This document shows positions 1 through 51,589 of a DNA stretch of 64,000 nucleotides, in pieces. The first letter of the stretch is position 1; each line of letters opens with the position of its first letter. A model generated the notes under the pieces. The model searched no databases and was not told where the DNA came from. It worked only from the letters and a program-made list of their open reading frames with translations. The position numbers were made by a program, and so were the translations under genes. The stretch comes from an uncultured Candidatus Saccharibacteria bacterium (lineage in GTDB: Bacteria; Patescibacteriota; Saccharimonadia; Saccharimonadales; JBBQAJ01): NCBI GenBank assembly GCA_964593805.1, contig CAZQHP010000001.1, positions 645,283 through 709,282 of the forward strand, given 5' to 3'.

Positions 1-3000
1 CAAATAGCGAATTTGCCATGGCGTTAGCGCCAGACGAAATAGACTATCTGTACAAAGAATACACAGCGCTGAAGCGCAACCCGACCGACGCCGAACTGAT
101 GATGTTTGCTTCAATAAACAGCGAACATTGCCGCCATAAAGTATTTAACGCCAGCTGGACGGTGGATGGCAAAAGCCGTCCCAAGTCATTGTTTGGCATG
201 ATTAAAAACACCTATGAAAAAGCCAGCCAGGATGTATTGTCAGCCTATTCAGACAATGCAGCCGTGCTAGCCGGAGCCGAAACAGACCGCTTTTTTGCCG
301 AAAGCGCCGGCGGCGACTACGGCTTCAAAAAAGAGCCGGTAGACATTGTTATCAAAGTTGAAACGCACAACCACCCCACAGCCATAGCGCCGTTTCCCGG
401 TGCGGCCACTGGTTCGGGCGGGGAAATACGCGACGAAGGCGCCACCGGTCGCGGCGGCAAACCAAAAATGGGCTTGAGCGGTTTTAGCGTTTCCAACCTA
501 CAAATCCCGGGCCTGCTACAGCCGTGGGAGAAAAACTACGGCAAACCAGAGCGGATTGTTTCGCCGCTGGAAATCATGATCGAAGCGCCGGTGGGTGCGG
601 CTTCGTTTAATAACGAATTTGGACGGCCAAACTTAGGCGGTTATTTCCGCACCTTTGAAGCCGAGGTAAATGGCGAAGTCCGCGGCTACCACAAACCAAT
701 CATGGTTGCCGGCGGGCTGGGGAATATCCGCCGCCAGCATATAGAAAAACACGCACTGCCGGTAGGCGCGCACTTAATTGTACTGGGCGGACCGGCCATG
801 CTAATTGGCCTGGGCGGCAACACCTCCGCCAGCATGCAAGCCGGGCAGTCAGGCGCCGAACTGGACTTTGCTAGCGTGCAGCGGGCCAATGCCGAAATGC
901 AGCGGCGGGTACAGGAAGTAATAGACCGTTGCTGGGCCATGGACGCAGACAACCCCATCATAAGCATCCACGATGTTGGCGCCGGCGGGCTGTCAAACGC
1001 TTTACCGGAGCTAATCCACGACAGCGGCCGCGGCGGAGAAATTGAACTGCGCCTCGTCCCAAATGCCGAACCCGGCATGTCGCCGCGGGAAATCTGGTGC
1101 AACGAAGCCCAGGAACGCTATGTGCTGGGCATTGACCCCAAAGACCTTGAGGCTTTTAAGGCCATCTGCCAGCGCGAACACTGTCTGTTTGCGGTGGTGG
1201 GCAAAACGACCAAAAAACAACAACTGCTGGTAACCGACCGAGAGCTGGGCGAACCAGCCATTGACCTGCCCATGAGCGTGCTGTTTGGCAAACCACCCAA
1301 AATGGAACGTTCGTTCGAACACCAAAGCATCGCAACTGCAGCCCTCAAAACAGCCGGCATAAAGCTGGACGAAGCCGTCAAGCGCGTGCTCCAGATGCCC
1401 AGCGTGGGCAGCAAGCAGTTTCTGATTACCATTGGCGACCGCAATGTTGGCGGTCTGATTGCTCGAGACCAAATGGTGGGGCCCTGGCAGGTTCCAGTCA
1501 GCGATGTAGCCGTGTCTGCCAGCGGTTTCCATGGCTACAGCGGCGAAGCCATGGCCATGGGCGAACGTACGCCGCTGGCCGTTGTAAATAGTCCAGCCTC
1601 GGCGCGCATGGCGGTGGGCGAAGCCCTGACAAACATTGCGGCCGCGCCAATTGGCAAGCTGTCCGACGTAAAGCTTTCCGCCAACTGGATGGTGGCAATC
1701 GGCACGGGCCACGAAGACCAAGCCTTATACGATGCCGTTCAGGCGCTTGGCGAAGATTTTTGCCCCAGCCTTGGTCTCACCATCCCAGTGGGCAAAGATT
1801 CGCTCAGCATGCGCACCACTTGGGAAGAAAATGGCAAAGACAAAAGCGTCACCGCGCCCATGTCGGTCATCATTAGTTCTTTCGCGCCCGTGACAGACCT
1901 CCGCCGCACCCTGACACCGCAGCTGCAACTGGGCGACACTTCGCTATTGCTGATTGACCTAGGGCAGGGCAAAAACCGTTTGGCTGGTTCGGCGCTCGCT
2001 CAAGCCTATTCTCAAATGGGCGAAGAAACGCCCGACGCCGACGGCGACATGCTCAAAGCGTTTTTCAGCACCGTCCAAAAGCTTAATGCCAGCGGAAAAT
2101 TACTGGCATACCACGACCGTTCCGACGGCGGCCTGTTCGCCGCCTTGGCAGAAATGGCTTTTGCGGCTCGTTGCGGGCTGGATATAGAAATCCCAGAGCG
2201 CGCGGACCCGCTGGCAGAACTTTTCAACGAAGAATTAGGAGCAGTTATACAAATAAATACTTCAGATACTGAAGCAATTTTAACGTCGCTGAATGCCGCT
2301 ATGCCGGACAGCTCGCGTTTAATCGGCAAACCAACCCGTGATGAAAAAATTACCATTAGTCATGCGGGCAGATCGGTGTACCAAAATACTAGGGCGCAGC
2401 TGCAATCGTGGTGGAGCGAAACCAGCTATCGCATCCAGGCCCTGCGCGACAACCCGGCTTGCGCCGAGCAAGAATACAAAAACATTGGGCTTAAAGACCC
2501 CGGCATTACACCCAAAGTATCTTTCGACTACCCAGCAAACCCCAAGAAATACACTGCGAGGCCCAAAGTCGCAGTCTTCCGCGTCCAGGGCGTAAACGGC
2601 CACGTAGAAATGGCGGCGGCTTTTGACCAAGCTGGGTTCACTAGCGTGGACGTGACGCTTACCGACATCGCCAGCGGCGCGGTAAGCCTCAAGGACTTTG
2701 CCGGCCTAGTGGCCTGCGGCGGCTTTTCTTACGGCGACGTGCTGGGAGCGGGCGAAGGCTGGGCCAAATCCATCCTGTTTACTCCCGAACTGCGCGAGCA
2801 GTTCAAGCAGTTTTTCAAGCGAACAGACACCTTCAGCCTTGGCGTTTGCAACGGCTGCCAGATGCTCTCCGCGCTAAAAGAGCTCATCCCCGGAGCGGAG
2901 CAGTGGCCACGCTTTTTGCGCAACGAATCAGAACAGTTCGAAGCCCGCCTGGCGCAAGTGAAAATCCAAGCCAGCCCCTCAATCTTTTTCAAAGGCATGG

Positions 3001-3323
3001 AGGGGTCAATTTTGCCCGTTCCGGTAGCCCACGGCGAGGGCAGGGCAGAACAAACTGTGCCAGCCAATTTAGTGGCCGGCACATTTGTAGACAACGCCGG
3101 CAAAACCACCCAAACCTACCCATTCAACCCCAACGGCTCGCCGGGCGGCATTACAGCGCTAACCACCCCAGACGGCCGAGCCACAATCATGATGCCGCAC
3201 CCAGAGCGAGCCTTTCTAACCCAGCAACTGTCCTGGCATCCCGCCGACTGGCAAAAAGAATCCCCCTGGTTTCAAATGTTCCTAAACGCCCGCGAATGGG
3301 CAAGTGATAAATCCCAGCCTTAA
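1..3323 (+). CDS. purL: phosphoribosylformylglycinamidine (FGAM) synthase, single-chain large PurL; 5' end cut by window
   Basis: The frame of ORF 18..3323 stays open to nt 1. It has the [10 protein letters not shown] linker motif, duplicated AIR-synthase-like domains and a C-terminal glutamine amidotransferase ([14 protein letters not shown]). Confidence 0.93.
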
Positions 3324-5902: not shown

Positions 5903-7072
5903 ATGACAAAAATCATGCTCGTCGAAGACGACAACAACTTGCGAGAAATTTACGAAGCCAGGTTACTGGCAGAAGGCTATGAAATTGTCAGTGCCAAAGA
6001 CGGCGAAGAAGCACTGGCTATGGCTGTCAAAGAAAAGCCGGATTTGATTATTGCAGACGTTATGATGCCCAAAATCAGCGGCTTTGACATGCTGGACATC
6101 TTGCGCAGTACTCCAGAGACCAAAAGCACCAAAGTCATCATGATGACGGCTCTGTCTCAAGCCGAAGACAAGACCAGAGCCGACAAATTGGGAGCTGACC
6201 GCTACTTGGTAAAATCTCAAGTTACCCTGGAAGACGTCGCAAAAGTTGCCCGCGAAGTATTGGGCGGAGAAGAAAGTGCCGATTCCAACGGAGCTTCAAG
6301 CACGCCAACCCCAGGTCCTACGAAAGACGATGTTTCAACCAAACCCGTTTCCGCAACAGCATCAGCCCCCGCGCCTGACCCTTCGTCATCAACCCAAATT
6401 GACCCTGCCTTGGCAGCAACTTTGCAAGAAGAAGAGGCGACTATAGACTCCCAGATTAATGAATTTGCCAGCCAAGGTTCCGCGTCTGCAGGACCATCCG
6501 ACCCAACTGTAGTTAGTGCGGTGTCCGATGACGAAAGCGGCGCGTTGGACGAACCGGCCGCTTCTGACACCAGCTTGGCCACAGCCCCGCCAGCAGTGCA
6601 GATTAGCGTAAAGGATGCACCTGGATCCAGTAGCGACGAAGCTTCAGCAAAGGAGGAATCCAGCGACGACGAAGCTGGCGCCAAAGAAGACAAATTAGCC
6701 GATGCGGTCAATGGCATAGTCAAAAGCACAGAACCAGCGCCCGAAGAAGCCAAAGCGGACGAGTCTGGCAGCGGCGACAACGTTCCCATTGCCCACAAAA
6801 AGGTAATTGAGCCCATAAATGACATGTCTCAAAAAAGCCCAGATTTAAATGAGCTTGCGGCCAAAGAAGACCAGAAAGAAGCCGTTTCCCCAGTTGTCCA
6901 AGCCGATACAACACTTCCAGCCGAAGCCGTCATCCAGCCAGGCGGAGCCACCACCACGCCTAAGAGCGAGGATGAAGGGCCCAAACTCCACAAACCCGGC
7001 AATGTCATTATCCCTGGCGGCGGTACAGTCAGTGATGCTGGCAGTGAACAGCCCTCTGACATCGCCCTCTAA
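5903..7072 (+). CDS. response regulator receiver domain with ~260-aa acidic S/P/A-rich tail and no recognisable output domain
   Basis: The N-terminal ~120 aa are CheY-like (VEDD, DLIIADVMMP, MMTA, KS). The remainder is low complexity. Confidence 0.85.
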   Translation: MTKIMLVEDDNNLREIYEARLLAEGYEIVSAKDGEEALAMAVKEKPDLIIADVMMPKISGFDMLDILRSTPETKSTKVIMMTALSQAEDKTRADKLGADRYLVKSQVTLEDVAKVAREVLGGEESADSNGASSTPTPGPTKDDVSTKPVSATASAPAPDPSSSTQIDPALAATLQEEEATIDSQINEFASQGSASAGPSDPTVVSAVSDDESGALDEPAASDTSLATAPPAVQISVKDAPGSSSDEASAKEESSDDEAGAKEDKLADAVNGIVKSTEPAPEEAKADESGSGDNVPIAHKKVIEPINDMSQKSPDLNELAAKEDQKEAVSPVVQADTTLPAEAVIQPGGATTTPKSEDEGPKLHKPGNVIIPGGGTVSDAGSEQPSDIAL

Positions 7073-15767: not shown

Positions 15768-15776
15768 TTATCCACA
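15768..15776 (+). promoter_or_regulatory. perfect DnaA-box consensus TTATCCACA
   Basis: Exact 9-mer in the topA / sigma-4 gene spacer. Confidence 0.35.
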
Positions 15777-15877: not shown

Positions 15878-15905
15878 TTGACTTTTTGTACATTTGTTTT
15901 ACAAT
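15878..15905 (+). promoter_or_regulatory. sigma-70-type promoter of the sigma-4/Wbl operon
   Basis: TTGACT, a 16-nt spacer, then TACAAT, about 35 nt upstream of ATG 15940. A GGGAAGAG Shine-Dalgarno-like element is present. Confidence 0.45.
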
Positions 15906-15939
15906 TATAGTATTCTTACATAAAGGACAGGGAAGAGCA

Positions 15940-16971
15940 ATGCCAGAAGCAGCCAAACTACAGATTGAAAAGATTGTAACCGACGTGCTCGGTACAATAG
16001 AGCGCGAACGCGAAAGAGAAATCATCGCACGCCGTTTTGGTTTGTTTGACCGCAAAGAAACTCTGGAACAGATTGGGGAATTGCTGGGGATCACCCGTGA
16101 ACGCGTCCGTCAGCTAGAAAAGGCCGTTGTAGCCCGCCTGAAAGCTCAAGCCGACGCCGGCCAGCTACCGCACATTGCTATGGTCCAAGACGCTTTTATA
16201 GAACTGTTAGGTGACATGGGCAGCATTGCCCGCGTCAGCAACCTTAGCGCCCAGCTGAACAAAGAAAATACTCGAATAGACCAGTCCCGCGTCTCTTATT
16301 TGGCACAACTGTGCCCTAAAATAGTGGTAGTTGACGACAATGACAACTACTACCACGCCGTCGCGCTTAAATCCGTACATGACGAAAAGAAAGTCAAAAA
16401 GCTGGTAGAACAGATTTTGGCCACCGTAAAACAGATTGGCGAACCAGCTACAATTGAAGAAGTTGCCAAGACGTCCAGCCTGGAAAACGTCAAACACGTA
16501 GCAGCTCTGGCCAGCACCAGCAAAGCTTTGGCAACCCTGAACGGCCGCTGGGGACTTATCAAATGGCCAATGGTCAACCCCAAAAACATCCGTGACAAAA
16601 TCTACGTCATCCTAAAAGAACACGGCAAGCACATGCACTTCAACGAAATCGCCGCCGCTATCAAAGACAGCGACTTCAAGCGCAAAGACGTCACCACCCA
16701 GGCAATCCACAACGAACTGATCAAAGACAAGCGTTTCGTGCTGATAGGGCGGGGGATTTACGCGCTTAAAGAATGGGGTTATGAAAAGGGCACTGTAGCC
16801 GACATAATCACCCAGGTGCTCAAAAAGGCCAAAGAACCGCTGCACCGCGACGAAATCGTCAAACAGGTCCTAAAAAGCCGCTATGTCAAAGAAACTACAA
16901 TCCTACTGAACCTGCAAGGCAAACCACAGTTCAAGCGAGTAGCCAAAGCCACCTACTCTTTAGCTGAATAA
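15940..16971 (+). CDS. sigma-70 region-4-only protein fused to HARE-HTH / winged-helix domains
   Basis: REIIARRFGLFDRKETLEQIGELLGITRERVRQLEKAVVARLK is a textbook region 4.2. There is no region 2. The C-terminal HARE-HTH-like segment is KIYVILKEHGKHMHFNEIAAAI ... RFVLIGRGIYALKEW. Confidence 0.75.
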   Translation: MPEAAKLQIEKIVTDVLGTIEREREREIIARRFGLFDRKETLEQIGELLGITRERVRQLEKAVVARLKAQADAGQLPHIAMVQDAFIELLGDMGSIARVSNLSAQLNKENTRIDQSRVSYLAQLCPKIVVVDDNDNYYHAVALKSVHDEKKVKKLVEQILATVKQIGEPATIEEVAKTSSLENVKHVAALASTSKALATLNGRWGLIKWPMVNPKNIRDKIYVILKEHGKHMHFNEIAAAIKDSDFKRKDVTTQAIHNELIKDKRFVLIGRGIYALKEWGYEKGTVADIITQVLKKAKEPLHRDEIVKQVLKSRYVKETTILLNLQGKPQFKRVAKATYSLAE

Positions 16972-17294
16972 TGAAACCATTGTATGAATTAACGCTCGCG
17001 GAGTTGAGTGACAGGGTGGTTGCTTTTGGCTCTTGTCACAATGGCTCCGTAGTAAATTCAGATCTTTTTACAGCGAGAAGTGATTTTGAATTTCCGTCAG
17101 ACTTAGCTTCCAGGCAACAAATCGCAGCAGAATATTGCGGCGACTGCAGTGCTCAGATTGCATGTGTTCAGTTAGCTAAATCCCTGGGAGCTAGCTCTGT
17201 AAAAGGATCAATTATGGGTGGGTTTTATTTTGGTGGTAATTTTGTTTTGAACATAAAGACTAACACCAAAATACCAAAAAGCAAATTTTTTTAA
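16971..17294 (+). CDS. WhiB-like (Wbl) Fe-S protein homologue
   Basis: Cys pattern C22...C56-x2-C59-x5-C65; SDLF after the first Cys; turn motif SIMGG in place of GVWGG; basic tail. The ATG overlaps the upstream TAA (TAATG). Confidence 0.6.
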   Translation: MKPLYELTLAELSDRVVAFGSCHNGSVVNSDLFTARSDFEFPSDLASRQQIAAEYCGDCSAQIACVQLAKSLGASSVKGSIMGGFYFGGNFVLNIKTNTKIPKSKFF

Positions 17295-17500
17295 TTGATA
17301 GCACGTCAATTTTTAAATATGTACAAAATGCGAACAGCGGGTGGTTGGTGTGGTGGCGGGATAGAAACATAAGCTTTCAATAATTTGGGCAGTGTGTGGA
17401 AGGAGCAGTGCAACAAACAAAAATGCGAAATGCAAAATGAAACCGTGGGAAATACTGCGACAGAACACGGTGCAGAGCAACGTATCCACACATAGACACG

Positions 17501-17528
17501 ACGTCGCACAATGTATATTTTGCGACTC
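17501..17528. other. dif-like 11-6-11 recombination-site candidate
   Basis: ACGTCGCACAA-TGTATA-TTTTGCGACTC has palindromic inner arms GTCGCA/TGCGAC. It is identical to E. coli dif at 16 of the 18 inner-arm plus central positions. Confidence 0.3.
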
Positions 17529-17712
17529 GGTTGTAGCGAACATAGTTGATCAGCATTACCCCTTCTACAGGGAAGGATTAACAAGTTTCATGTTACAAGT
17601 ACCAAGTCACAAGACTTATCCCTCTGCCATAACTACGTTGTGTCGTATTCTTGATACTTGCTCCTTGTCATCACTTGCTACTTGTACTGTTGTGATGTTT
17701 GGCACATTTGAC

Positions 17713-17721
17713 TTATCCACA
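17713..17721 (+). promoter_or_regulatory. perfect DnaA-box consensus TTATCCACA (8/9 copy GTATCCACA at 17482-17490)
   Basis: Exact 9-mer in the gene-free convergence zone. Confidence 0.3.
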
Positions 17722-17908
17722 GTTATGTCGTGAAATCATTTGCTTTTTCACGCTTTTGCTTTTGAAATTTGTTTTCCCCTTTCCTACCACCAAATTGCAT
17801 AATTTTGACTTTTGCTTGTTTTGAATGTTTGGTATTGTTTTTGCCTGCTTAGCAAACATACCAATATATGAACAAATTACGAACTAGAGCAGTGCGGTGG
17901 AAGTACCG

Positions 17909-18820
17909 CTATTTGTAAAACACTTTTTCGTCCACGCGTACGTCTAGATATTCGGCGGGAACTACGCCCTCGGCGTCCAGTTTGGCTTTGGCGGCTAGAT
18001 ACGTCCCTACTGCCTGCCGTGGGTCGCTATCTATAGAAAACTTTATATAATACCGTTGGCCGTTTACCCGCACGTCGGCCTCGTTGGCGCCGCGCGGCGG
18101 CAAAGTGATTGACGTTACAGCTACCGCGTCAGTCTGTAATTGCGCGTATAGCTTTCTCAGAAAACTGGCTTCCGTTGCGGGGATAACGACTTTGCCTGGT
18201 TCGGCGGATATGCCCGTTTCATCATGTACTACCGGCACGTTTTGCAGTTCATTCGCCAATAAATCGGTTGTGCGTGCCATCACTTTGCCACCGGCGTCTA
18301 CATAGAACGACCCATTGGCGCTCATCAGCTGCAAAGCTGGCTTTGTGGGTGTCAAAACCACGGTTGGCCGACGGCCCAGCAGTGGCAGCTCTATCCGAAC
18401 GGTAGCCAATTCGGTAAACTGGCCGGCTATATCACGGCGGATTGTAGCTGTAGATATAGTTAGTTTGGTTCGGCTAAACACCGACTTTTTCCAGATAGCT
18501 TGTACGGCTTCCTGGTAGACCTTGGGGTCGCGATGAACTGTATCTGGGGTGTTTACTAGAATTATCTTGGGATTAGGCTGCAGCAGGCAGGCATTCCCCA
18601 GGGCAATCAATATTGCCGCCAGCGCGATATAGCTTGGTATGTGACCAAGACGCAATCGATAGCGTTTGAGGGCGCTTACGCCAGCATTTTCATTTCTACC
18701 AGTGTTTTGATCGCTGGGGGAGGCACCGCGAGCATAATACGAAAAAACAGCCGGGTTCACGCCATTCGGCCGCTGCCGCTGATTTTTGTCTTGTTTTTTC
18801 TGTTTTTGAAGCCATACCAT
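17909..18820 (-). CDS. ftsQ: cell division protein FtsQ/DivIB-like
   Basis: N-terminal basic region plus one TM, POTRA-like and FtsQ-like beta domain. It occupies the last position of the dcw cluster, after murG. Confidence 0.75.
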   Translation of the reverse strand: MVWLQKQKKQDKNQRQRPNGVNPAVFSYYARGASPSDQNTGRNENAGVSALKRYRLRLGHIPSYIALAAILIALGNACLLQPNPKIILVNTPDTVHRDPKVYQEAVQAIWKKSVFSRTKLTISTATIRRDIAGQFTELATVRIELPLLGRRPTVVLTPTKPALQLMSANGSFYVDAGGKVMARTTDLLANELQNVPVVHDETGISAEPGKVVIPATEASFLRKLYAQLQTDAVAVTSITLPPRGANEADVRVNGQRYYIKFSIDSDPRQAVGTYLAAKAKLDAEGVVPAEYLDVRVDEKVFYK

Positions 18821-26049: not shown

Positions 26050-26403
26050 TTACTTGGCCAAAATACGCCAGTACCGTTTGCCCACGCTAACGGCAGAAAT
26101 ATCCCGTGTAATACCCGCGTAATCCAGTAGATGCTGCTCCAAGGTGATCCGTCCTTGCCTGTCGTCGGGCTTCATGTCTGTCTTGCCCATCCGAAATTGG
26201 ATGTTCAGGTCAGCAATCCGCTCGTCAAGGATATCGCCTTCCAGCCGCGGCTCTACCAGATGTTCCCAAACATCTTTGGGATACAAGTGCAGGTATTGGC
26301 CAAAGCCTCGTGTCACAACAGCACCGCTTGCAAACGTATCTCGAAGTTCGGGCGGGAGCGTTAGCCTCCGCTTTTCATCGAGCTTTCGTTCGAAGTAGTC
26401 CAT
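26050..26403 (-). CDS. mraZ: transcriptional regulator MraZ (short, 117 aa)
   Basis: Two half-domains with DEKRR and DDRQGR (DxxxR-type) motifs. It is the first gene of the dcw cluster. Confidence 0.85.
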   Translation of the reverse strand: MDYFERKLDEKRRLTLPPELRDTFASGAVVTRGFGQYLHLYPKDVWEHLVEPRLEGDILDERIADLNIQFRMGKTDMKPDDRQGRITLEQHLLDYAGITRDISAVSVGKRYWRILAK

Positions 26404-26525
26404 TGGTACACCTTTAGTGGTTAATATGCAGTGGTTTTTATTTTGCTTCGTAAGTTTCGCTGCACATCGCGGGTAAAACTATTTTGGTTTTACACTGAGC
26501 GCAGTCGAAGTGCTACCTACGACAA

Positions 26526-26561
26526 CCCACTAACAGGAGTTTACTCCCCACCATTACCCAC
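26526..26561 (-). promoter_or_regulatory. candidate MraZ operator: GTGGG direct repeats
   Basis: The - strand reads GTGGGtaatgGTGGGgagtaaactcctgttaGTGGG. The repeats start 10 and 21 nt apart, about 125-160 nt upstream of the mraZ ATG. Confidence 0.4.
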
Positions 26562-26604
26562 AAGCAAGCACTTTATACATAAAAACTGCCCCTTTTAGGG
26601 ACAG

Positions 26605-26641
26605 TTATCCACAGTTTTTCAACTTTTACGATTTATCCACA
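26605..26641 (+). promoter_or_regulatory. pair of perfect DnaA-box consensus sites (TTATCCACA x2)
   Basis: Exact 9-mers at 26605-26613 and 26633-26641, same orientation, upstream of the mraZ operator candidate. Confidence 0.35.
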
Positions 26642-26680: not shown

Positions 26681-27454
26681 CTATTTCATTGTATGGTCAA
26701 ACTGCACGACTGCGTAGGGCGTTTGGCTGGCATGGCCAAGTAGTTGACCGCCTGCAAAATCAATAGCATCGGCGCCAAAGCCGCCAGCTCCTGTTGCGGG
26801 TATTTCTGTCACCGTAGCCCCGCTATATTTGCCATCTGCTGTAATCTGACCGATAGCACTCCATCCGGTGTGGTCTATAACATCGTCCAGGGTCTCTAGT
26901 TTAGGCACGTTGCCTTCGCTGTCGGGCAATATGCCGCCTACATACATATCGCCATTTGCTCTTTTGATAATTAAGCCATTCGTAAAGGTAACCTGGTTCG
27001 CCTTTGCCAGCTGTTCATTTTTATCACCCGGCTTTCCAACGTCCAGCGCAATATTACTTTCAAGATACGGGCGTATTGAGTCATCAAGTTGTTTTGGGGT
27101 TTCACGAAGATGTATAGGCACTACTTTTTGGCTATTGGTCAGTGGCGGCAACTGTGTAACTAAAATGTCACCCGTGAAGCTGGATATTGTTGTATCACCA
27201 ATCGTAAATTCGGTTTGCCCGCTATTTATCAATCCTTCAATCAATGCTTTTTCTTGGTTTTGGGCTTCATCAATGCGCTCATCGGTTGGACCTTTCGGGA
27301 TGCTATCCAAACCACGATTAATAGCACCCGCGCCCAGAGCCAAAGCAAGGGCGCCGCTAAGCCCAGCCGCTATTAATCGGCGTTTCCTGAATGTTTCAGG
27401 AGTTGGCTTTGGCCGAGCGGCGTGACTTGGATGAGCATCGAATGTTTTTGCCAT
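26681..27454 (-). CDS. secreted/anchored hypothetical protein (257 aa)
   Basis: N-terminal FRKRRLIAAGLSGALALALGAGA (signal- or Tat-like), then a beta-rich domain with no recognisable family. Confidence 0.6.
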   Translation of the reverse strand: MAKTFDAHPSHAARPKPTPETFRKRRLIAAGLSGALALALGAGAINRGLDSIPKGPTDERIDEAQNQEKALIEGLINSGQTEFTIGDTTISSFTGDILVTQLPPLTNSQKVVPIHLRETPKQLDDSIRPYLESNIALDVGKPGDKNEQLAKANQVTFTNGLIIKRANGDMYVGGILPDSEGNVPKLETLDDVIDHTGWSAIGQITADGKYSGATVTEIPATGAGGFGADAIDFAGGQLLGHASQTPYAVVQFDHTMK

Positions 27455-46978: not shown

Positions 46979-47251
46979 ATGTCACACGTCAAAGCTGGTG
47001 GAACCAGCAAAAATAATCACGATAGCCCCGGCCAGCGCCTAGGCGTCAAGCTGTTTGGCGGCCAGAGCGTCAAAACTGGCCAGGTCATTGTACGCCAAAC
47101 CGGCTCAACCAAACGCGCCGGCAACGGAACCTTTCTGGCTCGTAACTTCACCATACACGCCGCCAAAGACGGAATCGTAAAGTTTTCTCAACGAAGAGTC
47201 CGCCACTTCACTGGCCGAACCACCTACCGCACCGAAGTCACCGTCGAATAA
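46979..47251 (+). CDS. rpmA: 50S ribosomal protein L27
   Basis: HVKAGGTSKNNHDSPGQRLGVKLFGGQ ... IVRQTG. Confidence 0.9.
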   Translation: MSHVKAGGTSKNNHDSPGQRLGVKLFGGQSVKTGQVIVRQTGSTKRAGNGTFLARNFTIHAAKDGIVKFSQRRVRHFTGRTTYRTEVTVE

Positions 47252-47258
47252 AGTTTGA

Positions 47259-47510
47259 TTACTGTTCGTAAGGCTTAGATTTTGGGCCAGGTATTGGACC
47301 ATCCATAGTGTTCAGGTCACCTAGCTTTTGCATACGCTCAACTTCTGCGCGTGTTCTGGAAATGGCGCCTTCGTCTACTGGACGCACAGCCGCATCTTCA
47401 ACTTTAAGGTGTTGTTCAGGTCCCCTGCCAAGCAAATGGTCAAATTCACCCGACTGTACTGCTGGGATTTCTGGTTGTTCTGGTTGTGGAGCTTGATTTG
47501 GGTTTGGCAT
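47259..47510 (-). CDS. small proline-rich hypothetical protein (83 aa)
   Basis: ORF with its own promoter; probably disordered. Confidence 0.5.
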   Translation of the reverse strand: MPNPNQAPQPEQPEIPAVQSGEFDHLLGRGPEQHLKVEDAAVRPVDEGAISRTRAEVERMQKLGDLNTMDGPIPGPKSKPYEQ

Positions 47511-47543
47511 TTTTTTGTTTCCAATATTACTTTTACGATATTA

Positions 47544-47572
47544 ATAATAGCATAAGCGCGTTAATTAGTCAA
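47544..47572 (-). promoter_or_regulatory. promoter TTGACT-17-TATTAT (GCTTATGCTATTAT type)
   Basis: The -35 box overlaps the TGA stop of the upstream gene. A 33-nt A-rich leader without a Shine-Dalgarno follows. Confidence 0.5.
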
Positions 47573-48744
47573 CTTGATGTGTCAGTTTTGTGTGTATCAA
47601 ACAAACCCTCGTCGAATAATTTTACCAGTGCTTTTGCACGCTCAACTATGGCTTTGCTGGTTTTTTCCCTATCCCGTAATCCCATAGGCGTTTTGGGGTC
47701 AATAATTCGGCTGGCTGTTGATTCGTCAAGCCCCCGAAGCTTTTCAAAATACTCTGCTACTTGTTCTCGATTTTCATCCGTAATAAAGGGTTTGAGACCA
47801 TATCCATAACCAAGTTCGGTATCTTCCGACAAACTTGCCCGCATAGCTTGTTCATGAGTATCAAATTGGCCTTTTCCAGATACTTTATATGGAACGAATG
47901 TTGACATCCCGAGGTCCTGCGCATAATGCATGCCGGACTGCTGATCAACGATGCCTTGGTGGCTGCCATCACCAAAACTGCCGATGACCCAGTTAAATAC
48001 ATTCCGAAAGTCCAAGTCAGCCTGGTTACTAATTGCCCGCCGAGCAGTCTTTATGTCCTCCGGCATGGGCAGGCTTTCAACTCGTTTTTGAGCGTATAAA
48101 GGGTCTCGGGCATGCTCATACAAATGATACGAAAGAGCGTGCGGAATAAATCTATACGCCAATCGTGCCTCGCCAACAGCAACCCCTAAACCCTCCCCCT
48201 GGGGTATAACAAGCTTTGTCTCCGGAACTGGGTATCCGAGATATCTGGCTATCTGGTAAGCTATGACTTCATGCTCATCAGTTTGTTTGTTATGTGTCAT
48301 TTGAATCACGTCGTTAAGACCCTTTGGCGCCTTTAGAAGCCAGTCATCGCCAATTTCATCTTGTACAACGTGAAATTCAGAGCCTGTTTGACGCGACAAG
48401 TCAGGGTCATTTTCTTTTACAAAGTGTTCTTGCTTCGGGCTTGGCGAAAAACTTGTTGGCTCAAAACCAAGTTTTTCATCAAGCTGCGGGTCATTTTCAA
48501 GTAATTCAATTGCGGACTTAAGCTCGCTATCTGTTTTTGTGAATGGAGTTCCCGCCCAGTGAATGTATTTATCTATATCCTGCGCAATGTCAATTACAGG
48601 ATCATGTGGTGCAACCTCAGCCCCTTCATGTTTAATGCGACCTACAACTGCCCCTACTATACGAGCAACACGACCACGTTGTATGGCAGGGTCGACACTT
48701 TGTTCAACAGTAGGCTGAATTGTTAACTGATTGGGTTCCGTCAT
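47569..48744 (-). CDS. hypothetical protein with atypical protein/lipid-kinase-like core (391 aa)
   Basis: WLLKAPKG (beta3 Lys?), EHEVIAYQIARYLG (alphaC Glu?), catalytic-loop-like FGDGSHQG, and an Asp of DLG exactly 18 residues later, matching the D-to-DFG spacing of ePK and PI3/4K. Confidence 0.6.
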   Translation of the reverse strand: MTEPNQLTIQPTVEQSVDPAIQRGRVARIVGAVVGRIKHEGAEVAPHDPVIDIAQDIDKYIHWAGTPFTKTDSELKSAIELLENDPQLDEKLGFEPTSFSPSPKQEHFVKENDPDLSRQTGSEFHVVQDEIGDDWLLKAPKGLNDVIQMTHNKQTDEHEVIAYQIARYLGYPVPETKLVIPQGEGLGVAVGEARLAYRFIPHALSYHLYEHARDPLYAQKRVESLPMPEDIKTARRAISNQADLDFRNVFNWVIGSFGDGSHQGIVDQQSGMHYAQDLGMSTFVPYKVSGKGQFDTHEQAMRASLSEDTELGYGYGLKPFITDENREQVAEYFEKLRGLDESTASRIIDPKTPMGLRDREKTSKAIVERAKALVKLFDEGLFDTHKTDTSS

Positions 48745-48768
48745 TTTTGTGTGTGTTTAACAGATATA

Positions 48769-48797
48769 ATAATAGCATAAGCTTTGTATTAAGTCAA
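48769..48797 (-). promoter_or_regulatory. promoter TTGACT-17-TATTAT (GCTTATGCTATTAT type)
   Basis: Near-identical to the promoter at 47544-47572, with a 24-nt A/C-rich leader. Confidence 0.5.
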
Positions 48798-48804
48798 CTC
48801 GGTG

Positions 48805-49077
48805 TTAGCGTAATTTTCTGAGCGGAGGGGTGCTGGTGTTTTCTATTATGCTACGTAATGTATTTGCCAGCATTACAGAAGCCGAAAACTTCTTTGCCAG
48901 GTGCGCTGGCGGCCTCTGTGCGTCTAGGTCCGAAACTGCATGCAGAACAGGTGCGGAGCTTTCAACAGGCTGCGCTTCGACTGGAGGCACTAAATACAAA
49001 ACCGGCTTTTCGGGGGGCACTTGCTGCGGTATACCCGTCCACTTAAAGTAATGCGAACCATCAATGTTACTAGCCAT
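48805..49077 (-). CDS. small proline-rich hypothetical protein (90 aa)
   Basis: ORF; TAATGT lies 6 nt before the ATG, so the mRNA is leaderless. Confidence 0.5.
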   Translation of the reverse strand: MASNIDGSHYFKWTGIPQQVPPEKPVLYLVPPVEAQPVESSAPVLHAVSDLDAQRPPAHLAKKFSASVMLANTLRSIIENTSTPPLRKLR

Positions 49078-49127
49078 GCTTTAACATTAACGCACTAGCC
49101 GCGGCTTTGAAAGACTAGAAAGCGTTT

Positions 49128-49400
49128 CTAGTTCAATAATCTGCCCGAACGAGGCGTTTTAGTTCGCCGTGTCCTGCTCATAATATCTAGTATTTCTCTT
49201 GTAGATAGCTCTGGCGGTTGGTTTGCCGCCAGCTTGCCCAGAACTTTGGGGGTTTCTGTAATTTCTGGTGGGACGCCTGCTGATCCGACCGAAGCCTCAA
49301 CGCCCATTGGTTCGCCAACTATTTGCTGAAAAGGAGTTTCAGCTGCTTGAACAGGTATTTGTGGTGAGCCTGGGGCTTTGTCGCCCGTGTTTATTGCCAT
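49128..49400 (-). CDS. small proline-rich hypothetical protein (90 aa)
   Basis: ORF of the same length and layout (MA.N start, Pro-rich middle, basic C-terminus) as the 48805 gene. Confidence 0.5.
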   Translation of the reverse strand: MAINTGDKAPGSPQIPVQAAETPFQQIVGEPMGVEASVGSAGVPPEITETPKVLGKLAANQPPELSTREILDIMSRTRRTKTPRSGRLLN

Positions 49401-49406
49401 AATTAA

Positions 49407-49435
49407 ACATTAGCATATTTGTGGTAAATTTGCAA
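49407..49435 (-). promoter_or_regulatory. promoter TTGCAA-17-TAATGT, leaderless geometry
   Basis: The -10 box ends 6 nt before the ATG at 49400. Confidence 0.5.
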
Positions 49436-49452
49436 TACCCTGCCCCTGTTAG

Positions 49453-49863
49453 CTATAAACCTAGATGGGATTTGATGCGGTCTACTACGTCGGCTATTAC
49501 TACTTGGGATTTGACCAGGTAGTCGTCCACTCCCAGGGATTCGGCGCGCTGTTTGTCACTGTCCTGGCTGAGCGCCGTTAGCATGATAACTTTTACATTG
49601 GTAGTTTCCGGCGTGTTGCGCAGTATGTCCAGCACATCAAAGCCGCTGACTTTAGGCATCATGACGTCAAGCAAAATCAGGTCTGGTTTGTACTCTAGCG
49701 CCGATGCCAGCGCGTCTTCGCCGTTTGGCACCCGCTTAAGGTCAAAGCCCTCGGCTTGCAAACGAGTTTGGTAAACACTTGCCAGCGCGTCATCGTCTTC
49801 TACGAGCAAAATTTTCTTTGGGTGGGCTGGTGGTGATGCTTGTTGTTCGTCCATAGTGCTCAT
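49453..49863 (-). CDS. single-domain response regulator (receiver only)
   Basis: LLVEDDD, DLILLDVMMP, MLTA, KS. Its receiver domain closely resembles that of the 5903 gene. I chose ATG 49863. Confidence 0.85.
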   Translation of the reverse strand: MSTMDEQQASPPAHPKKILLVEDDDALASVYQTRLQAEGFDLKRVPNGEDALASALEYKPDLILLDVMMPKVSGFDVLDILRNTPETTNVKVIMLTALSQDSDKQRAESLGVDDYLVKSQVVIADVVDRIKSHLGL

Positions 49864-49873
49864 GGTACATGAG

Positions 49874-49904
49874 CAATGTTCAATTATCAATGTTCAATTA
49901 TCAA
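49874..49904. repeat. 14-mer tandem repeat CAATGTTCAATTAT x2.2
   Basis: Exact duplication just upstream of the response-regulator start, followed by CATTGA words. Confidence 0.8.
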
Positions 49905-49981
49905 CGTAAAGACACCTATGATTGCATTAAATGACTAAAACATGCCGCATTCATTGATCATTGAAACTTGAGCATTGAGCA

Positions 49982-51589
49982 TTATTTTCCAAGTATGGCT
50001 TGGATAAAGCCGTCAAACATAGGGTGCGGACGGTTGGGGCGGGATTTGAATTCTGGATGAAACTGGCTGGCTAGCAAAAACGGATGGTCAATGCCTTCGA
50101 TGATTTCCACCAAATTATTGGCTGGATTAACACCGGTAGCCCGAATACCCCAGGCTTCGTACTGGCCGCGGTAGCTGTTGTCGCATTCGCCGCGGTGGCG
50201 GTGGCGTTCCACAATCTTTGTCGTGCCATAAACTTTGGCCGCCAAACTGCCTTTTTCTAGCACGCAATCGTAATCGCCCAGGCGCATGGTGCCGCCGGTT
50301 TGCAGCTTGCCTTTCTGGTCTTGCATAGTATTAATCACCAGGTTTTTGCCGTCCGGATTTAGTTCAAAAGTTGTGGCGTCGGCAATGCCGGCGTTACGAG
50401 CCGCGGCAATCACTCCCATCTGCAAGCCCAGGCAGAGTCCTAGGTACGGCGTTTTGGTTTTGAGCACATACTGGGCAGCTTTGATTTTGCCTTCCAGGCC
50501 GCGCTGGCCAAATCCGCCGGGAACCACAATGCCATCGTAGCCTTTGAGCACTGGTGCTATATCCGTGCCTGGGGCGTCATATTTTGAAGCGTCAATCCAG
50601 TGGATGTCTATTTTGGCGCCGTTGTGCCAGGCCGCGGCTTTGAGCGCTTCAAATACCGACATGTAGGTATCCGTATTGTCCATGTATTTGGCTACAAAGC
50701 CAACTTTTATGTCTTGTTTATGATTGGTGGTGGCCTTTTCTACCACCGCTCGCCATTTTTTCAGGTGCGGTTTTTTGGCCTTGAGTCCAAGGTTTTTCAC
50801 CAAAACGTCGGCTATGCCAGTGTCTTCCAACGTCAGTGGTACTTCGTAGATGGAGCGAGCGTTTGGCAATGGCGCGATAGCTTTTACCGGAACCCCGCTG
50901 AACAAACTAAGTTTTCTAATTGCCGACACGCTAGCTGGCTTTTCGCTACGGGCTACCAATATGTCGGGCGCTATTCCCAGACCGCGCAAATCCCGCACCG
51001 AATTTTGCGCCGGTTTGGTTTTGGTTTCATTGCTCGCGCCCAGATATGGCAGGTAAACTACATGCACGTAGGCGCAGTGTTCTAGCCCAACTTTTATACC
51101 TAGTTCACGTATGGCTTCCACAAAAGCCAGCGATTCGTAGTCGCCGACCGTACCGCCGATTTCTACAATGTGTACATCGTAACCTTCACCAGCTTTAATT
51201 ATCCAATCTTGGATAGCCCCGGTTAGGTGCGGGATAATCTGCACGTCGTCGCCGTCAAATTTGCCTGCTCGTTCGTCTTGGATAAGTTTTAGCAGCACCC
51301 GGCCAGCCATGAGGCTGCTGGCGCTGGTCATTTCTTCGTCTACAAAGCGTTCATAATGGCCGAGGTCCAGGTCTGTTTCGGCACCGTCTTTAGTCACAAA
51401 ACATTCGCCGTGTTCGCGCGGATTTAGTAACCCCGCATCTACATTCAAATACGGGTCGCATTTTTGCAGATTAACTTTGAGCCCGCGGGCTTTTAAGAGG
51501 TTTCCAATCGAGGCGGCTGTGATACCCTTGCCGAGTCCGGAAAGCACACCACCTGTAACAAATATAAATTTTGTCTGGCTTTTCGCCAT
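49982..51589 (-). CDS. pyrG: CTP synthase
   Basis: FVTGGVLSGLGKGI, amidotransferase LGLCLGLQ, HPEF. Confidence 0.95.
   Translation of the reverse strand: MAKSQTKFIFVTGGVLSGLGKGITAASIGNLLKARGLKVNLQKCDPYLNVDAGLLNPREHGECFVTKDGAETDLDLGHYERFVDEEMTSASSLMAGRVLLKLIQDERAGKFDGDDVQIIPHLTGAIQDWIIKAGEGYDVHIVEIGGTVGDYESLAFVEAIRELGIKVGLEHCAYVHVVYLPYLGASNETKTKPAQNSVRDLRGLGIAPDILVARSEKPASVSAIRKLSLFSGVPVKAIAPLPNARSIYEVPLTLEDTGIADVLVKNLGLKAKKPHLKKWRAVVEKATTNHKQDIKVGFVAKYMDNTDTYMSVFEALKAAAWHNGAKIDIHWIDASKYDAPGTDIAPVLKGYDGIVVPGGFGQRGLEGKIKAAQYVLKTKTPYLGLCLGLQMGVIAAARNAGIADATTFELNPDGKNLVINTMQDQKGKLQTGGTMRLGDYDCVLEKGSLAAKVYGTTKIVERHRHRGECDNSYRGQYEAWGIRATGVNPANNLVEIIEGIDHPFLLASQFHPEFKSRPNRPHPMFDGFIQAILGK

Follow-up and report, generated by a model that had tools for sequence, protein, structure and literature searches.

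A 28-bp palindromic sequence was analysed in a 64,000-nucleotide stretch of contig CAZQHP010000001.1 (assembly GCA_964593805.1), which derives from an uncultured Candidatus Saccharibacteria bacterium of the order Saccharimonadales; this whole stretch is referred to as the window. The sequence lies in a long intergenic spacer at which two gene blocks converge, and the evidence indicates, with a probability of about 80%, that it is the chromosomal dif site of this bacterium and of the Saccharibacteria. In the proposed mechanism, one or more Xer-family tyrosine recombinases, encoded elsewhere in the genome, would bind both of the near mirror-image 11-bp arms (half-site GTCGYA[A/C]AA) and would carry out strand exchange at either edge of the TATACA centre (6 bp). 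The reaction would convert dimeric, and possibly catenated, chromosomes to monomers at cell division, at a site placed where two long co-oriented gene blocks converge, which would be the expected position of the terminus. The identity of the recombinase, its control by FtsK and the location of the terminus are presumed.

A dif-like palindrome conserved across Saccharibacteria

On the plus strand the site reads ACGTCGCACAA (arm), TGTATA (centre) and TTTTGCGACTC (arm); on the minus strand, which is the orientation of the neighbouring ftsQ-like gene, it reads GAGTCGCAAAA, TATACA and TTGTGCGACGT. The arms, GTCGCAAAA and GTCGCACAA, are near mirror images of each other. Five of six pairs form between positions 7-12 and 17-22, a degree of pairing that the palindrome criterion of Kono et al. 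2011 (PMC3025954) accepts. Comparison with Escherichia coli dif gave 17 identical positions of 28, with an identical TGTATA centre and 16 matches over the 18 inner positions (5-22). These values confirmed the 11-6-11 layout, the shared centre and the inner match that had been described in the initial annotation. Identity rose to 20 of 28 positions for the beta- and gamma-proteobacterial dif sites of Thiobacillus, Methylobacillus and Shewanella. When the site was read on the minus strand, the TATACA centre and the arm TTGTGCGACGT resembled the dif sites of Xanthomonas and Magnetospirillum, with whose XerD arms (TTATGCGAAAT and TTATGCGACAA) this arm agrees at 8 of 11 positions; 5-6 of 11 positions agree with an XerD arm of the E. 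coli type (TTATGTTAAAT), and A25 is present. The 28-mer occurs once in the window, even when three mismatches are allowed, and shuffled sequence gave no match. Its location is non-coding and its GC content is 0.43, compared to 0.494 for the window.

As an independent measure, the 48 proteobacterial dif sites listed by Carnoy and Roten 2009 (PMC2731167, Table 1) were turned into a position weight matrix, and both strands of the window (approximately 128,000 positions) were scored with it. The site ranked first on both strands, with 15.4 bits on the plus strand and 13.5 bits on the minus strand. The next match elsewhere, third-best overall, scored 6.1 bits at position 17309, in motif E of the same spacer (see below), and the best outside the spacer scored 5.5 bits. 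Background scores were -41.6 ± 11.1 bits, and the training sites themselves had a minimum of 7.3 and a median of 33.4 bits.

Conservation of the site was examined in two sets of loci. For the unbiased set, a single genome of each GTDB species was searched with an alignment of FtsQ; of the 34 loci obtained, 30 had enough downstream DNA. The 28-mer was present with no more than three mismatches in 26 of these 30 species, and in 25 of the 30 the 24-bp core differed only at positions 5 and 20; FtsQ itself was just 31-66% identical in amino acid sequence across the same species. The second set came from an exact-core scan of metagenome contigs and comprised at least 120 contigs. Among the metagenome matches listed, the site was present in one copy each, and the same synteny and/or the same motifs of the surrounding spacer were found in 116 of 120. 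Except where an element had been inserted, it lay 360-600 nt downstream of ftsQ in a constant orientation, and topA and a gene encoding a protein with sigma-70 region 4 and HARE-HTH domains (sigma-r4/HARE-HTH) converged on it from the opposite side. There was one copy per contig in approximately 150 contigs, and no second copy with up to five mismatches was found in 1.06 Mb of flanking sequence. Uniqueness in the genome, which the initial annotation had proposed as a check, was thereby supported in part, for the window and for these contigs. In five contigs of 0.78-1.17 Mb the site was located 85-142 kb from a contig end. The near end was the one beyond the division cluster in four of them, whereas in the source contig it was the one beyond topA; this regularity might reflect a common assembly break point. 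In the source contig record of 776,748 bp (ena:ERZ27284378:k139_508325), the window occupies positions 80,135-144,134 and the site lies at approximately 97.6 kb; in OZ246417.1 (903,164 bp) it lies at approximately 142.3 kb.

The variation that was present is informative. At the mirror positions 5 and 20 the combinations C/G, T/G, C/A and T/A were found 69, 36, 18 and 9 times, respectively (Fisher p = 1). Since the two positions vary independently, with no selection for pairing, the palindrome appears to be a protein-bound DNA site and not an RNA hairpin. The sole multi-base variant of a subclade (loci L025, L026 and L027) changes the centre from AAAATATACATTGT to AAAAGATATAATGT; it is confined to positions 11-17 and the outer arms are kept. 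In known dif sites, positions 11-17 are likewise where species diverge, and the variant would be useful as a natural test of the specificity of the central region.

In its length, its 11-6-11 layout, its palindromic inner arms and its A25, the site is like XerCD/dif of the Proteobacteria and Firmicutes (28 bp, 11-6-11), which it also resembles in being non-coding, in its lower G+C content, in its presence at one locus per genome as far as seen, and in its exploitation by integrase-less filamentous phages. It differs from XerCD/dif in that its arms are almost mirror images and the outer GTTAAAT is missing. The symmetric arms would suit a single recombinase, as in the XerH/difH system of Helicobacter and Campylobacter, the XerS/difSL system of streptococci and lactococci, and archaeal XerA/dif. 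However, the recombinase gene usually lies beside the site in the XerS and XerH systems, whereas none was found within 23 kb to the left or 46 kb to the right of the site analysed here, and difSL has an 11-bp centre instead of one of 6 bp.

Integrase-less prophages at the site

Four independent inovirus-type prophages were located exactly at the site. The prophage in locus L163 was found by scanning IMG/VR for the core, and homologues of its Zot protein led to three further insertions: L198 (with the same phage in L177, L199 and L200), L196 (also in L197) and L201. The contigs of L198, L177, L199 and L200 are 1.16-1.17 Mb in length; L196 is from GCA_036388415.1 and is 1.10 Mb. All four prophages share the order ftsQ, motif A, intact 28-mer, phage of 5.4-6.9 kb, hybrid 28-mer, and motif E at +196 to +219 (motifs A and E are conserved elements of the spacer and are described below). 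The intact copy is always on the ftsQ side, and the hybrid consists of a foreign left arm joined to an unchanged centre and right arm. In L163, the intact copy AAGTCGCAAAATATACATTGTGCGACAT is followed by an insert of 5.5 kb, the hybrid CAATATCGCAATATACATTGTGCGACAT, and a normal right flank with motif E at +196.

The prophages carry a Zot protein (PF05707) and a rolling-circle Rep protein (REP_ORF2-G2P, PF23343), both of which scored above the Pfam cut-offs; in L163 the scores were 44.5 bits for REP_ORF2-G2P (cut-off 27.8) and 25.9 bits for the Zot/pI-like ATPase (cut-off 20.3), and this insert also encodes small membrane proteins. No integrase domain was found in the other called prophage genes. 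Since the prophages lack an integrase, a host recombinase must cut and rejoin DNA exactly at this site. As judged comparatively, from the sequences of the junctions in relatives, it is strongly supported that the 28-mer serves as a substrate of site-specific recombination in vivo. The interpretation as dif, proposed in the initial annotation from the sequence of the site, gained support from the top matrix score, from the near-invariance of the core and from integrase-less prophages with hybrid junctions.

One intact and one hybrid junction is the organisation of IMEX, the integrative elements that exploit Xer (reviewed in PMC5357621). Like CTXphi, VGJphi and TLCphi of Vibrio cholerae and the gonococcal island of Neisseria, the Saccharibacteria prophages encode a Zot/pI-like ATPase and a rolling-circle Rep protein, have no integrase, and are inserted at a dif or dif-like site, such that one junction has an intact site and the other a hybrid with the centre and one arm. 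Unlike the known IMEX, their hosts are Saccharibacteria, members of the Candidate Phyla Radiation, and many tailed-phage contigs also carry two-armed dif-like sites.

The prophage family in Saccharimonadales is approximately 5-7 kb in size and encodes small membrane proteins and sometimes an HTH repressor in addition to Zot and the rolling-circle Rep. With a cut-off of E <= 1e-10, 2,746 homologues of the Zot protein were found, many of them on contigs of approximately 5 kb, and the relatives L202-L204 are circular, with a terminal overlap of 127 bp. Among viral contigs scanned for relatives of Zot, the only two recovered were already in the set.

Thirty further IMG/VR phage contigs carry a 17-mer that comprises the centre and the right arm (AATATACATTGTRCGAC). 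Most of these are tailed phages that encode terminase and replication functions. The left arms vary but are clearly dif-like; by a hand count, approximately 15 of approximately 25 distinct left arms fitted GTCGCAC at five or more of seven positions (approximately 0.3 expected by chance). There were no chromosomal flanks in these 30 contigs, and no Xer-like open reading frame or integrase in the DNA examined. The dif-like sites of the tailed phages (L164-L194; for example L164:759-786, L189:6311-6338 and L174) are often situated between the small and large terminase genes. These phages may use the Xer system of the host, or the sites may serve in the resolution of phage multimers.

The surrounding module and its gene neighbourhood

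The site is embedded in a conserved non-coding module of approximately 590 bp and of fixed geometry, the elements of which are listed in Table 1 together with the flanking genes and the L163 prophage.

Table 1. Coordinates of the dif-like site, the surrounding module, the flanking genes and one prophage (positions in the window unless a locus is named)
Feature	Position	Strand	Description
28-bp dif-like site ACGTCGCACAATGTATATTTTGCGACTC	17501-17528		11-6-11 palindrome
24-bp core GTCGYAAAATATACATTGTRCGAC	17503-17526		Near-invariant
Central 6-bp region	17512-17517		Presumed strand-exchange zone; TGTATA on +, TATACA on -
Conserved non-coding module	17309-17896	-	Fixed geometry across Saccharibacteria; median length 593
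Motif A GTTCGTAATTTGTTC	17870-17884	-	Two GTTC units 11 bp apart, TAWWWT core; approximately 25 nt past the ftsQ stop
Motif E GTTCGCATTTTGTAC	17321-17335	-	Second copy of motif A, direct orientation
DnaA-box consensus TTATCCACA	17713-17721	+	TGTGGATAA in ftsQ orientation; inside the module
Hairpin-forming block CGTGAAA-N10-TTTCACG	17729-17752	-	Part of a block of approximately 95 nt, nearly identical in closer relatives (alignments)
Small G+C hairpin CCCTGTAGAAGGG (ftsQ orientation), then AATCAWCT	17559-17576	-	30-50 nt before the site
Left flanking gene	16971-17294	+	107-aa Cys-rich protein, possibly Wbl-like; closes the plus-strand block
Right flanking gene	17909-18820	-	ftsQ-like; last of the mraZ-rsmH-ftsL-ftsI-mraY-ftsW-murG cluster
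L163 prophage	L163:1353-6833		Between the two copies of the site

Relative to the core, the position in approximately 90% of loci was -357 for motif A (interquartile range from -370 to -345) and +194 for motif E (190-202). The motif A pattern GTTCGYAWWWTGTTC was present between -650 and -250 in 118 of 131 loci, and motif E between +100 and +500 in 113 of 127. Elsewhere their common pattern (GTTCG-N6-GTTC with a -10-like TAWWWT core) occurred at chance level, with 67 matches in 1.02 Mb compared to approximately 62 expected. The L198 inovirus (reverse complement of 7010-7024) also carries motif E of the chromosome (TGTTCGTATTATGTTCA) in identical form, 209 nt after the intact site and directly upstream of a GGAG ribosome-binding site and the ATG of a small CxxC protein; its place ahead of a ribosome-binding site and a small open reading frame suggests a promoter or operator role for the motif.

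Between the site and motif A, 119 of 133 distinct modules contained TGTGGA(A/T)AA, at -199 (interquartile range from -218 to -184), against a background of 0.002 per 60 bp. The window contains four perfect DnaA boxes (TTATCCACA), all intergenic and all on the plus strand, and with one mismatch allowed such boxes are mildly enriched (18 versus 12). The other three perfect boxes and their neighbours lie at 15768-15776, upstream of the sigma-r4/HARE-HTH gene, and at 26554-26562, 26605-26613 and 26633-26641, where two perfect boxes and one with a single mismatch are clustered between mraZ (approximately 26142-26495) and a minus-strand gene at 26681-27454, next to the division and cell-wall cluster. 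DnaA may regulate cell-division genes in this bacterium. In an anchored conservation profile of 132 sequences, the small G+C hairpin and AATCAWCT were centred at about -45, and GTCTAT was found at +4 from the site; the conserved blocks of the module were also visible in an alignment of 11 species.

The module may be accessory or regulatory DNA. By analogy only, it is like the flanks of cer (ColE1) and psi (pSC101), in which a Xer core lies within conserved flanking DNA of fixed length; it is unlike them in that conservation extends to both sides (357 and 194 bp) and the site is chromosomal. In cer and psi, accessory sequences of approximately 180 bp are bound by PepA together with ArgR or ArcA. 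Motifs A and E agree at 11 of 15 positions with the direct repeat of the ArcA box, GTTAATTAAATGTTA. That the dif core and the module form an obligatory nucleoprotein assembly, which would control Xer recombination or couple resolution to DnaA or to the division operon, is a tentative proposal and was considered rather doubtful. If it were true, this would be a chromosomal dif with a built-in accessory architecture, such as is not known to have been described for any bacterium.

The spacer that contains the module (17295-17908) is 614 bp in length and is the longest intergenic gap in the window, in which the median gap is 50 bp. Its GC content is 0.404, compared to 0.494 for the window and 0.442 for the other spacers, and it is the most AT-rich spacer of the window; the initial description of an unusually long, AT-rich spacer was accordingly upheld. 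The gap was also gene-free as claimed, since the ends of both flanking open reading frames and independent gene calls made on the source contig left the same 614 bp. The open reading frames inside it, which had been dismissed as implausible, gave no match in a Pfam search, and tblastx conservation was spread equally over all six frames, which argues that the spacer is not coding. A scan for promoters and terminators gave results at chance level, with no U-tract and no terminator-like signal above chance. One half of the spacer is A-rich and the next T-rich; each half is A-rich in the sense of the transcript that enters it.

To the left, genes are on the plus strand for at least 23 kb (the window plus a 6-kb extension) and to the right they are on the minus strand for approximately 46 kb, with few exceptions; the strand switch is thus real and longer than the 27 kb given initially. 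This convergent arrangement was kept in all of the relatives examined. The plus-strand block includes genes for purine synthesis, a sensor kinase with its response regulator, der, pth, dprA, topA and the sigma-r4/HARE-HTH protein. The names Wbl and ftsQ that had been given to the two flanking genes proved to be weakly founded. The 107-aa protein has a C...CxxCxxxxxC pattern, and its Whib match was below threshold (14.9 bits compared to a cut-off of 23.6); ftsQ had no Pfam match and is named by its position after murG.

The "Wbl" gene is not kept at this position in all relatives, and the gene adjacent to the module varies. The sigma-r4/HARE-HTH gene (15886-16971) is always a member of the gene block that converges on the site; its product is mostly 60-92% identical in relatives in which FtsQ is 22-40% identical, and 47-54% identical in four divergent loci. 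The first open reading frame (1-3323) is a purL gene truncated by the start of the window; on the source contig the complete gene encodes 1,276 amino acids, and the purine-synthesis operon extends upstream of the window on the plus strand.

Possible terminus location, alternative explanations and significance

The assignment of the site to the replication terminus is derived from gene orientation and from the well-documented occurrence of dif at the terminus (PMC2731167; PMC3025954). Gene orientation fits a terminus, and this location is plausible. The GC-skew data, which covered 70 kb of a 777-kb replicon, were less clear. Skew was approximately -0.015 over 24 kb to the left of the site and -0.065 over 30 kb to the right, and was flat beyond approximately 48 kb. 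Per-gene GC skew and third-position skew differed between the plus-strand genes on the left and the minus-strand genes on the right (p = 0.0016). A further change of slope, from approximately -0.065 to approximately -0.01, was seen near 47000-50000, and beyond approximately 48 kb the third-position sense skew of minus-strand genes passed from about zero or positive to negative.

Several results weigh against a dif site at the terminus. At the site itself the GC skew changed in slope and not in sign, and the cumulative curve had no peak in the window plus 6 kb, so that of the original terminus claim the convergence of genes over approximately 70 kb stood and a skew maximum did not appear. The per-gene skew test is confounded by gene class, as indicated by the resemblance of the genes on the far right to those on the left. 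A published complete Saccharibacteria genome has a classical skew pattern, with its origin between dnaN and dnaA (PMC6031116). A search of the window and of 204 related loci (1.6 Mb) with a validated XerD probe revealed no gene for a Xer-type recombinase, and the Xer gene that the initial annotation had proposed to locate in the genome was likewise not found in the 70 kb covered. No tyrosine recombinase was encoded near the site, either within 23 kb on its left and 46 kb on its right or, in approximately 150 relatives, within ±4-10 kb. A dnaA gene was similarly not found in the window or within ±4-10 kb of approximately 200 related loci, 1.6 Mb in total, with a validated probe. The absence of both genes from this DNA indicates that the recombinase is not linked to the site and that the origin is not nearby.

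Other points on the same side concern the site. The proteobacterial outer XerD-arm signature GTTAAAT is absent, a divergence of the outer arm that had been reported initially and was confirmed. In contrast to the variable flanks of proteobacterial dif sites (PMC2731167), flanks and synteny are fixed throughout the phylum, and this rigidity hints at an additional or a different role. The metagenome and viral matches were selected by an exact pattern, and invariance within that pattern is therefore not independent evidence. Finally, no close or convincing attP was found in the circular 5.1-kb phage relatives.

Other explanations were considered alongside the dif reading. The palindrome could be an operator or roadblock for another conserved DNA-binding protein that ends two convergent operons, such as a protein-dependent bidirectional terminator or a division regulator tied to the cell-wall/division cluster, and the phages would merely attach there. 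The fixed synteny with ftsQ would be consistent with such a function, as would the rigidity of the module, its DnaA box and its direct repeats, which resemble a promoter or operator, the A-rich character of each half of the spacer in the sense of the transcript that enters it, and the lack of a Xer gene in the DNA searched. This explanation was judged unlikely in view of the integrase-less prophages, which require a host recombinase to act exactly at the site. Furthermore, neither the 11-6-11 layout nor the top score against an independent dif matrix would be expected of an arbitrary operator, and the terminator-like signals that transcription termination might provide did not exceed chance. 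A chance palindrome in an AT-rich spacer was also entertained as the source of the resemblance to dif; it was refuted by the zero matches in shuffled sequence, by phylum-wide conservation and by the phage junctions at the site.

It was considered very improbable that transcription of the spacer yields a non-coding RNA, or an RNA hairpin (stem of 6-8 pairs, loop of 8-12 bases), to which the site belongs. The sequence can be folded, the module has a conserved length, as can be typical of RNA genes, and C-to-T changes in one arm would yield G-U pairs on one strand. However, the spacer had no match in Rfam, at gathering or permissive thresholds, or in an ARAGORN search for tRNA and tmRNA genes, and the independent variation of positions 5 and 20 includes the 18 C/A mismatches. 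RNAalifold analysis of 102 modules on both strands returned only the palindrome and a short helix of 3-5 pairs that starts at the G+C hairpin, with an unfavourable covariation term. A replication origin, or a locus that titrates DnaA or is otherwise regulatory, would account for the constant position of the DnaA box, seen in 119 of 133 modules, and for the AT-rich spacer, in which the switch from A-rich to T-rich on either strand is origin-like. There is only a single conserved box, however, the genes converge instead of diverging, and the cumulative skew has no minimum at the spacer. Together with the absence of dnaA from the window and the related loci searched and with the published position of the Saccharibacteria origin, these findings make an origin in place of a terminus very unlikely.

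The interpretation as a chromosomal dif site would be new for this group, since the literature searched yielded no description of a dif site or of an element that exploits Xer in Saccharibacteria or in other members of the Candidate Phyla Radiation; the dif survey of Kono et al. 2011 (PMC3025954) covered 16 phyla, and "TM7" is absent from its text. A 24-bp marker that is present once per genome would be a likely landmark of the terminus, and could help in checking metagenome-assembled genomes and in estimating replication rates. Through the site, a very large group of small filamentous phages, and also tailed phages with matching sites, can be linked to Saccharibacteria as their hosts. As a natural integration site that needs no integrase, it is a potential genetic tool for epibionts that are hard to manipulate. 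Bacteria with reduced genomes may depend more heavily on Xer-mediated unlinking, which could explain the extreme conservation of the site.

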